Of a stretch of 64,000 nt of DNA, positions 9,449-10,975 are shown piece by piece; the stretch's first letter is position 1, and every line of letters begins with the position of its first letter. The notes beneath the pieces are model-generated. The model saw only the letters and a list, made by a program, of their open reading frames with translations, did no database searches and had not been told where the DNA came from. This DNA comes from Escherichia coli (lineage in GTDB: Bacteria > Pseudomonadota > Gammaproteobacteria > Enterobacterales > Enterobacteriaceae). The stretch lies in assembly GCF_044324875.1 (NCBI RefSeq), contig NZ_CP172185.1; one strand, given 5' to 3'. A program made the position numbers and the translations under genes.

Positions 9449-9646
9449 TCACCGGTTCTGTTGCAGAAGCTGCAGTTGGCGCAGGGTATGGATATCCTCC
9501 CTCGCCTGTTCAATGCAGGGCAGCAGTGCTGCCGAATCCGTTTTATCCTCATCGTTGTCAAAGATAATTCCCGATTCGCAGTCGATATTGTCCTGCAGCC
9601 ACGCAATCAGAATATCCAGTGCTGTTTCCGTGGTTAATGATTTCAT
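9449..9646 (-). CDS. YeeW-like small protein
   Basis: 65 aa from internal ATG (MKSLTTETALDILIAWLQDNIDCESGIIFDNDEDK...) with AGGAA RBS; matches remembered YeeW. Confidence 0.55.
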   Translation of the reverse strand: MKSLTTETALDILIAWLQDNIDCESGIIFDNDEDKTDSAALLPCIEQAREDIHTLRQLQLLQQNR

Positions 9647-9657
9647 GTTGTTCCTGG

Positions 9658-10146
9658 TTACCAGTTGAAAGTGGGTAAACCCGGCAGGCATTCAGCGCTG
9701 GCATCCAGATGAATGAGACTGACGCCATAACGTCGGGTAAGTGTGACAACCAGACAACGGAACGTTTTTGACAGGCCCAGGCGCTTAAGCCGCAGAACCG
9801 GGTATGACCACGCATCGGTACGTAACAGATAGCCGCTACCTGTGAAATGAATCCATTCTGATTCACCAACGTCACTGGTCTGATGCGACAGCGAGTACAG
9901 CCAGGCGTTATCCTTTTCCGTGATATGTGCGGTACTGCAGCGTATGCCGGCAAGGGTTGCAAACGGTGGTAGTGTGCAGGTTGACTGTTGGTCGGATTCC
10001 TCCACCACGCGGAGTGAATAACCGTTTTCAGCGACCTTGTTAATCAGTTCAGTGAGATTAACACCATCGACGTCAACGACAATTTGCCCCATGTTCAGTG
10101 CCTGCACATTAATTCTGTCGGCTTCCAGCATCAGGGAAAGTTTCAT
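9658..10146 (-). CDS. hypothetical protein, DUF5983-like, translationally coupled to cbtA
   Basis: 162 aa; start codon overlaps the cbtA stop (ATGA) at 10143-10146. Confidence 0.55.
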
Positions 10147-10517
10147 CGTTTCTCCGGATGCTTACCCAGGGTAATGTTATTTACCGTTCTGTAATTGTCG
10201 CGGGTCATCAGGCCGGTCGCCCGGCGAGCCCGGAGGATATCAATACTGTTTATTAACTGAGAGCGGGGACAAGTGCTGAATCCCGGCTGGTCGGTACGCA
10301 CCAGCGCGTATTTTTCCACGAGAAAATTCACCGCATCACACAGTGAAATGCCAGCTTCAATATGCTGCTCAATCACACGTTCATCGGCGAACGGTGTGTC
10401 ATTCAGTGTAAGGCCGTAATGCTGGCCCAGTAGTCGGGAGAGCAGAGTCTGCCAGATGGTGACGGGAGACGGGCAGCTCGATGCCTCCCGTACGTGTGTA
10501 TCGGGTAATGTTTTCAT
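10143..10517 (-). CDS. cbtA: type IV toxin-antitoxin toxin CbtA/YeeV family (cytoskeleton-binding toxin)
   Basis: 124 aa; strong identity to remembered K-12 YeeV ([56 protein letters not shown]). Confidence 0.9.
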
Positions 10518-10606
10518 ACTGAAGGTTTTCCTGATATGCAGAGATGAAAAATGGAAAAGTGGCGTGGTGAAAGCACCAGGCCGGAGCAGAAGGTTATTCC
10601 GGTGGT

Positions 10607-10975
10607 TTACTTTTTCGTTTCGGGCGTCGGATAAACAGCCAGATAAACGTAACCACAGGAGCCGAGGGTGTCGGCTTCGCAGGTCAGCCCTTTCGCATAC
10701 AGCGTGACGGTATGCTGATGTCGGGGATTCAGTTCACCGCTGGTGAGCATGAGTTCCAGTTGTTTCATCAGCAGCGGAAAGGCCTGGTCCAGATGGTATG
10801 CATCTGCGTCGCTGAAGCGGCCTCTGATACCGGCGCGGTCGGCAAGGTAATGCAGGCGGTTACCCTCCTGCACCAGACGAGCGCCAAAACAGGGCCTCAC
10901 TGTGCAGGGAAGCCCCCACCAGGGGCGGTCGTGATTGTCGTCGGGATGAGTTATCCCGGAGAGTTTGTCTGACAC
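10607..10975 (-). CDS. cbeA: type IV toxin-antitoxin antitoxin CbeA/YeeU family
   Basis: 122 aa; strong identity to remembered YeeU ([40 protein letters not shown]). Confidence 0.9.

Follow-up and report, generated by a model that had tools for sequence, protein, structure and literature searches.

In a 64,000-nucleotide (nt) stretch of Escherichia coli DNA, contig NZ_CP172185.1 of assembly GCF_044324875.1 and referred to here as the window, the two genes of a type IV toxin-antitoxin pair are followed by two further small genes, and the identity, conservation and possible role of these extra genes are considered in the following. All four lie in tandem on the minus strand. The first, cbeA (10975-10607), has a GTG start and encodes an antitoxin of the YeeU family of 122 amino acids (aa; PF06154, E=7.9e-55). 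It is separated by an 89-nt spacer (10606-10518), which folds only into small hairpins, from cbtA (10517-10143), encoding a 124-aa cytoskeleton-binding toxin of the YeeV family which matches PF06755 (E=9.6e-62) over profile positions 1-112 of 112 and is 88% identical to CbtA of strain K-12. With Pfam matches for both products, and with the antitoxin gene directly upstream on the same strand, the two are, as judged from their sequences, a CbeA/CbtA (YeeU/YeeV) type IV pair, in agreement with an initial annotation that had been made from the DNA letters only. For the K-12 alleles, it has been demonstrated that the toxin inhibits FtsZ and MreB and that the antitoxin neutralises it without binding to the toxin (PMC5371832, PMC5624674).

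The TGA stop codon of cbtA and the ATG of the third gene share 4 nt at 10146-10143 (ATGA, or TCAT on the plus strand), and a Shine-Dalgarno motif GGAG lies within the 3' end of cbtA, 5 nt before this ATG (CATCCGGAGAAACGATGAAAC). The third gene (10146-9658, with a TAA stop at 9660-9658) encodes a 162-aa protein of the DUF5983 family, also named Aec77, whose scores against PF25638 (E=1.8e-28) and PF19419 (E=7e-21) both exceed the gathering thresholds. After a spacer of 11 nt (9657-9647, CCAGGAACAAC) carrying an AGGA Shine-Dalgarno motif, the fourth gene extends from an ATG at 9646 to 9449 and encodes 65 aa; it is called 'DUF957 domain-containing protein' by the Prokaryotic Genome Annotation Pipeline (PGAP) and has the database name Aec78. 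Both the ATGA overlap and the position of the 65-aa open reading frame (ORF) 11 nt beyond the 162-aa ORF had been recognised initially, and the gene boundaries assigned by PGAP in a 100%-identical genome agree with them.

A different conclusion was reached for the label 'YeeW-like', which had been attached to the 65-aa ORF. K-12 YeeW (b2006, 64 aa) is 71% identical to the 162-aa ORF over 52 aa (residues 5-56; E=3e-26), while it gives no alignment at E<=100 with the 65-aa ORF, and this absence of any alignment rules out the 65-aa ORF as YeeW. Moreover, the start of the K-12 yeeW gene overlaps the cbtA stop codon by the same 4 nt, and the K-12-type stump is named 'yeeW: DUF5983 family protein' by PGAP; it is only a stump because the CP4-44 prophage ends inside yeeW. 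On these alignments, the 162-aa gene represents the K-12 gene yeeW in intact form and the fourth gene belongs to a different family, DUF957.

The full-length DUF5983 protein has two domains that differ in computed isoelectric point (pI), the N-domain (residues 1-57) being acidic and the C-domain (residues 58-162) basic. An AlphaFold2 model based on an alignment of 44 sequences has an overall predicted local distance difference test (pLDDT) score of 85, exceeding 90 for the C-domain (residues ~60-162) and ranging from 66 to 78 for the small N-domain. The C-domain comprises about 100 residues with four short strands, and His74, Asp79, Trp98, Gly105, Gly124 and the C-terminal Trp162 are near-invariant in the family, which is small, with 213 clusters at 50% identity among 1.84 billion representatives. 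A sequence search of the PDB with a DUF5983 profile produced only a chance match (E=7.5), a scan of six module proteins against NCBIfam gave no match and neither did PADLOC for nine module proteins at E<=0.1. In the Pfam, PDB-profile and fold searches, the 162-aa protein resembled no known antitoxin, chaperone or regulator domain. A preprint places the family in the glyoxalase/bleomycin-resistance group and compares a Salmonella homologue with toxoflavin lyase (bioRxiv 10.1101/2024.01.30.577995) and, given the near-invariance of His74 and Asp79, DUF5983 might be read as a small-molecule enzyme or binding protein of the glyoxalase/VOC fold. This we regard as improbable: Foldseek comparison of the model with the PDB yielded nothing at E<1e-3, and the C-domain is smaller than the paired βαβββ module of VOC proteins.

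Conservation of the arrangement was examined in 80 loci, the best among 95 pattern-seeded matches from a scan in which each GTDB species was represented by a single genome and a CbtA/YpjF/YkfI alignment served as the query (single loci are cited below by our numbers, prefixed L). A DUF5983 gene follows cbtA in 15 of the 80 loci and is absent from the other 65, with tblastn and a profile hidden Markov model in agreement; twelve of the copies are full length, two, from Serratia, consist of the C-domain only and one is an N-terminal stump of the K-12 kind. Conservation of the ATGA coupling across islands had been suggested as a check in the initial annotation, and 13 of the 15 loci with the gene retain the overlap, the exceptions having ATGATG in one case and a 13-nt gap in the other. 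Single 4-nt overlaps are commonplace in bacterial operons; the retention of this one in 13 of 15 loci, at a protein identity of only 55-65%, goes beyond chance and indicates that it is maintained by selection. In both Serratia marcescens loci (L027 and L059, each at 4366-4695) a DUF5983 protein of about 109 aa without the N-domain is encoded and the ATGA overlap is kept, so that the purpose of the coupling, whatever it may be, does not require the N-domain.

In a neighbour-joining tree of the toxins, all 15 loci with DUF5983 fall within the CbtA/YeeV clade, whose roughly 23 members have toxins of ~124-128 aa and a long cbeA-cbtA spacer (~40-90 nt or more). The YpjF/YkfI clade has a 20-nt antitoxin-toxin spacer and DUF5983 in none of 57 loci. 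Within the YeeV clade itself, L010 and a Kosakonia/Enterobacter group (L020-L023 and L025) lack DUF5983 and have intact toxins of 124-128 aa and, more generally, cbtA is intact in nearly all of the 65 loci devoid of DUF5983, with cbeA upstream. DUF957 occurs in ten loci, always after DUF5983. Across the family, the third gene thus does not accompany the pair consistently (15/80 loci overall, 0/57 in the YpjF/YkfI clade, and truncated or absent in K-12); that the 162-aa ORF might be routinely missing or disrupted with the pair left intact had been named initially as the observation that would speak against its belonging to the system, and this is the pattern seen in the 65 loci and in K-12. Four loci labelled as Collinsella, Lachnospiraceae and Clostridiales metagenome-assembled genomes and as a Chryseobacterium isolate (L006, L007, L019 and L040) carry cbeA-cbtA modules of the Enterobacterales or E. 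coli type with 86-93% protein identity, and they probably reflect bin or assembly contamination and not the true host range.

Selection on the four genes was assessed by the Nei-Gojobori method as the ratio of nonsynonymous to synonymous substitution rates (dN/dS) between the window and diverged loci of other species, with dS reaching 1-2. The ranges are 0.18-0.33 for DUF5983 and 0.07-0.35 for DUF957, compared with 0.12-0.26 for cbtA and 0.10-0.28 for cbeA, and the lengths of the extra products, 162 aa for DUF5983 and 65 aa for DUF957, are strongly conserved. Since the ratios are well below 1, and similar to those of cbtA and cbeA, both extra genes are, by this measure, real proteins under purifying selection.

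For the fourth gene, this result bears on claims made in the literature. A preprint discusses the AntiFam entry ANF00264, located beside DUF5983, and argues against its being spurious, suggesting a programmed frameshift instead (bioRxiv 10.64898/2026.06.09.728211); from the position described there, we infer that ANF00264 corresponds to the DUF957 ORF considered here. If so, AntiFam lists the fourth ORF as spurious, and neither the 65-aa nor the 80-aa form of it (see below) matched current Pfam-A even at E<=10; together with the reduction of the third gene to a stump in K-12, this could suggest that both ORFs are non-functional relics or gene-caller artefacts. Such an interpretation is scarcely credible, and spurious ORFs were rejected on the dN/dS values, which are low for both genes even at dS up to 1-2; conserved lengths and starts, proper Shine-Dalgarno motifs for both genes and the confidently predicted fold of the DUF5983 C-domain also argue against it. 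The 65-aa protein is acidic, with a computed pI of 4.2, and has 372 homologous clusters whose members are also named DUF957.

According to the same preprint, DUF5983 and the downstream ORF would form one protein through programmed ribosomal frameshifting, and database proteins matching both DUF5983 and ANF00264 are reported there. In the window, moreover, the DUF957 frame continues without a stop codon as far upstream as an ATG at 9691, giving an 80-aa ORF that overlaps the 3' end of DUF5983. Against this, the spacer between the DUF5983 stop codon and the DUF957 ATG is 11, 16, 19, 29 or 30 nt in the loci with an identified ATG, and 22-34 nt in two more loci by extrapolation from the alignment. 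These lengths, taken modulo 3, give all three frame relations, so that no relation between the two frames is conserved, and a conserved frameshift fusion was rejected on this basis. In addition, the ATG of the 65-aa ORF occupies the same alignment position in different loci and is preceded by an AGGA Shine-Dalgarno motif of its own, DUF5983 occurs without DUF957 in L014, L017 and L027 and with a decayed DUF957 in L019, and the fused database entries are more simply explained as sequencing or annotation frameshifts, as exemplified by a single-member CbtA-DUF5983 fusion (P0002). We consider the frameshift very improbable, and the DUF957 ORF, on the sequence evidence, is real and looks separately translated rather than fused to DUF5983.

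The unit is closed by a GC-rich hairpin with a T-run that starts 28 nt beyond the DUF957 stop codon (9421-9395, minus strand; GACGCCAGCC-loop-GGCTGGCGTT followed by TTCGTTT). It was detected in a terminator scan as resembling an intrinsic terminator, with a folding energy of -20.9 kcal/mol, and is likely to be the 3' end of the unit. An equivalent hairpin, with other loop and stem bases, was found just upstream of DUF4942 in every locus examined. The last gene preceding it is cbtA in 12 loci (spacer 86-103 nt), DUF5983 in L014, L015, L027 and, with a decayed DUF957 remnant, L019, and DUF957 in the window and seven other loci. Given that the terminator is constant whichever gene precedes it, DUF5983 and DUF957 are in effect optional cistrons inserted between cbtA and a fixed terminator.

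The initial proposal that the four genes constitute a single transcription unit is plausible in view of their common direction, their tight spacing and the hairpin after the fourth gene. A promoter scan revealed no sigma-70-like site upstream of cbeA, or elsewhere in the module, except before DUF4942 (9390-9363), and the 5' end of the unit may lie further upstream, at DUF932. DUF4942 is conserved as the gene to the right in every configuration and probably forms a unit of its own. In the window it occupies 9364-8519 on the minus strand and its product is methyltransferase-like (PF13708, E=5e-69; phrog_6263 'DNA methyltransferase', E=7e-19). Upstream of cbeA, and also on the minus strand, Pfam matches identify genes for DUF932 (13278-12460), an antirestriction protein (12405-11920), a RadC/JAB protein (11919-11428) and DUF987 (11359-11138), and the order DUF932-antirestriction-RadC-DUF987 is the same in most of the 80 loci.

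Other positions of the module also accept additional genes. In Salmonella diarizonae (L008, 3296-3940) a 214-aa gene without a Pfam match lies between cbeA and cbtA and is ATGA-coupled to the cbeA stop codon. The 162-nt DUF987-cbeA spacer of the window contains a 26-codon ORF (11025-11105, minus strand; MTSDAAVDEAILINEYTFTETGQRAG) that matches the C-terminus of this 214-aa gene with 62% identity (E=1e-8) and is, to judge from the alignment, a relic of a lost optional cistron. L064 (3600-3887) and L072 carry, in a cbeA-cbtA spacer of about 615 nt, a gene for a 95-aa glycine-zipper protein of two-transmembrane-like character. With further optional cistrons present, one of them ATGA-coupled, 4-nt overlaps are a general property of this compact, cassette-like module and not peculiar to the toxin.

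Within E. coli the arrangement is very common. Perfect (100%) matches to the 1.6-kb block exist in at least 15 complete genomes, for which PGAP gives identical gene boundaries and the products 'YeeU family antitoxin | CbtA family toxin | DUF5983 family protein | DUF957 domain-containing protein'. Some match to the block was found in 4965 of 5426 complete genomes, with a median of three copies each, and the places counted within E. coli number 12,661 for cbtA and 12,042 for DUF5983. Of 60 E. coli genomes forming a spread sample, about 45 have the complete block, four carry internal deletions and about ten show the K-12-type truncation, and a near-full three-gene block is missing from about a quarter of the sampled genomes. 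K-12 itself has nothing downstream of ypjF-yfjZ and ykfI-yafW and only the 64-aa yeeW stump after cbtA, and all three of its toxins are toxic and are neutralised by their own antitoxins (PMC5371832). Since the third gene is absent or disrupted in most loci with the pair intact, and since the K-12 pairs function without an intact copy, the view that it is a required or essential part of the toxin-antitoxin system appears untenable.

The arrangement itself is already annotated genome-wide and the CbtA-DUF5983 linkage is already published (PMC10790755; bioRxiv 10.64898/2026.06.09.728211), with DUF5983 listed in the former, a large E. coli survey, as a recurrent downstream 'partner' of CbtA. What is new is the purifying selection on both extra genes, the retention of ATGA in 13 of 15 loci and the conserved closing hairpin at 9421-9395. 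The initial annotation described modulation of the toxin by the third and fourth genes as not established and, consistent with this, a literature search on yeeW, DUF5983, DUF957 and Aec77/78 found no experimental study of the function of DUF5983, YeeW or DUF957.

Insight into a possible role comes from relatives of DUF5983 that occur without CbtA. The C-domain matches phrog_5003 as well as structures predicted for the DUF5983 proteins that Erwinia and Colwellia phages encode. Distant relatives, none of them with a cbtA gene nearby, were found beside ssb and psiB (L092), together with DUF932 and H-NS on an IncFII plasmid (L088), beside DUF932, NikA and a relaxase (L085), and in a Klebsiella phage-plasmid (L095). 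A tblastn search of phage genomes with the 162-aa protein retrieved only a 3.2-kb E. coli 'phage' fragment, while distant family members used as queries reached Klebsiella phage-plasmids. Furthermore, L090 (4663-5330) and L091 (1-707) encode a 109-aa DUF5983 protein, consisting of the C-domain only, that is ATGA-coupled to an upstream DUF3085 gene without similarity to CbtA; this contig is plasmid-like, of the ParM/StbA type, and also carries HigB/HTH and DUF4942 genes.

We consider it fairly probable that DUF5983, together with DUF957, is an accessory gene of mobile elements that rides on the operon and is not a working part of the toxin-antitoxin mechanism. The four-gene block itself is the 3' end of a conserved accessory module in a selC-integrated E. 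coli island of the CP4-44/AGI-3 type, with the order DUF932, antirestriction, RadC, DUF987, cbeA, cbtA, optional DUF5983, optional DUF957, terminator and DUF4942. Because of the ATGA overlap and the Shine-Dalgarno motif inside cbtA, ribosomes terminating on cbtA could restart on DUF5983, and the output of DUF5983 would thereby be linked to toxin translation. DUF5983 and DUF957 have been lost or truncated repeatedly, leaving cbtA and cbeA intact. The occurrence of the C-domain without CbtA in plasmids, phage-plasmids and lytic phages suggests that the job of DUF5983 may be independent of CbtA and tied to the life of the mobile element in its host, for example in establishment or in countering host defence.

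Several considerations weigh against this interpretation. A strongly conserved ATGA overlap with cbtA, and the restriction of the two-domain DUF5983 to one CbtA clade, are what would be expected of a toxin partner. The assignment as a passenger is founded on gene context and on dispensability in K-12, where experiments cannot reveal the role of the full-length protein in hosts that possess it; moreover, the 80 loci are no unbiased census, and the suggestion of a role in establishment or anti-defence is guilt by association, to which the PADLOC and fold searches add no clue. An interaction with the toxin was also modelled: AlphaFold2 prediction of CbtA and DUF5983 joined by a 30-residue linker, with locus-paired sequences, gave a predicted template modelling score of 0.40 and no gain in local confidence, a crude and weak negative for which the paired alignment was shallow and no predicted aligned error was available.

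A doubtful but still live alternative is that the CbtA systems of the YeeV clade have an optional third component in DUF5983, and perhaps DUF957 as well, acting as a second-layer antitoxin, an adaptor or a sensor of the trigger, whose product would bind CbtA or its targets and be made in fixed proportion to the toxin by virtue of the translational coupling. The persistence of the ATGA overlap despite the sequence divergence, the confinement of the gene to one clade and the listing of DUF5983 as a recurrent partner (PMC10790755) are consistent with it and, since the activation of type IV toxins is unexplained (PMC5371832), there is room for an additional factor. On the other hand, most CbtA loci have an intact toxin and antitoxin but lack the gene or carry a truncated form of it, relatives exist without CbtA, one of them coupled by ATGA to an unrelated gene, no interface was predicted for the fused chain and no domain of a known antitoxin, chaperone or regulator was recognised. 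A stronger version, which we consider unlikely, holds that the YeeV-clade pair is really a three- or four-part system in which DUF5983, produced in step with CbtA, and the acidic DUF957 set the release of the toxin and in which K-12 is crippled by the loss of its control module; DUF5983 and DUF957 might then sense incoming phage or loss of the island. If true, this would answer the question of how type IV toxins are activated. In our ranking, the accessory passenger comes first and the optional modulator second, with the frameshift fusion, the glyoxalase and the spurious ORFs all unlikely.

The island that carries the module is integrated at selC and extends over about 51 kb, from setC (7726-6542) to tRNA-Sec (59796-59890), corresponding to ~8100-59890 of the window, and includes an ORF of integrase size at 58312-59496 on the minus strand. 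Strain LH85-a has a shorter island at this site, with a four-gene block that is 100% identical to that of the window. Between DUF4942 and setC lies a frameshifted internal fragment of a rhuM-family gene (8157-8284, mapped from the PGAP record), which marks the decayed right end of the island. Elsewhere in the island the Ag43 (flu) gene is truncated, an ORF at 16858-19041 on the minus strand corresponding to residues 331-1039 of K-12 Flu with 97% identity, and next to it is a transposase ORF of the IS3 family (19493-20239, plus strand). A full-length match to the Rfam isrC model (147 bits) occurs at 19058-19180 on the plus strand, in the orientation opposite to the flu remnant. Beyond yicS, towards the chromosome, at ~200-3900 (via NZ_CP100486.1, 62652-66321), a type III translocon gene of the YopB/SseC family and a chaperone gene of the SycD/LcrH type were assigned solely from the annotation of the identical genome.

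As it stands, the significance of the arrangement is very limited, given that thousands of E. coli genomes already carry this annotation; among the by-products, those of use are the correction of the YeeW assignment, the recognition of DUF957 as a real gene and of K-12 as a truncated model of the locus. If the extra genes do control CbtA, they would bear on the route by which type IV toxin-antitoxin systems are activated.

Comparison with known systems helps to place the locus. The closest reference is the K-12 CP4-44 locus cbeA-cbtA-yeeW (b2004-b2006), which shares with the window the gene order, a spacer of the 89-nt class and the 4-nt overlap of yeeW, but in which the prophage ends inside yeeW and DUF957, the terminator and DUF4942 are missing; relative to it, the window preserves the ancestral arrangement intact, and so do roughly three in four of the sampled E. 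coli genomes. Since the K-12 operon is a shortened form of this common layout, studies of K-12 never covered the intact third and fourth genes. The selC island of avian pathogenic E. coli BEN2908, which we take to be AGI-3 (Chouikha et al. 2006), is 99.8% identical to the window over the four-gene block. It also has the Ag43/IS3 junction, again with 99.8% identity, the comparison of the two islands being confined to the block and this junction and not covering the full 51 kb. The names Aec77 and Aec78, as in 'aec77'/'aec78' of the BEN2908 island, attach to the DUF5983 and DUF957 clusters, and the island of the window abuts tRNA-Sec.

The K-12 pairs YpjF-YfjZ (CP4-57) and YkfI-YafW (CP4-6) belong to the same toxin and antitoxin families as the window pair, with 59-63% toxin identity, and share the upstream antirestriction, RadC and DUF987 genes; they differ in having toxins of 109-113 aa, a 20-nt spacer and neither DUF5983 nor DUF957 in any of the 57 loci of their type. 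In three-gene systems such as toxin-antitoxin-chaperone (TAC) systems and paaR-paaA-parE, the third gene encodes a SecB-like chaperone or a transcriptional regulator that is needed for control of the toxin. The window resembles these in having a third, co-directional and tightly coupled gene in the operon of the pair, but this gene encodes no such domain, lies downstream of the toxin gene, is dispensable in K-12 and is absent from most loci.

Finally, the stand-alone DUF5983_C proteins (phrog_5003, Erwinia phage pEp_SNUABM_08, Colwellia phage 9A and Klebsiella phage-plasmid ST13-OXA48phi12.3) share PF19419 with the gene of the window, including the motif CSTAHIT..DN, a near-invariant Trp, G-x-G-Y-L and a C-terminal FDW. 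They differ from it in their length of ~100-135 aa, in an N-domain that is missing or different and in the lack of a cbtA neighbour, their contexts being ssb with psiB, DUF932 with a relaxase, or phage accessory regions. DUF5983 is a small domain family of mobile elements and, since it is also found without CbtA, functional studies should not presume that it is an antitoxin.

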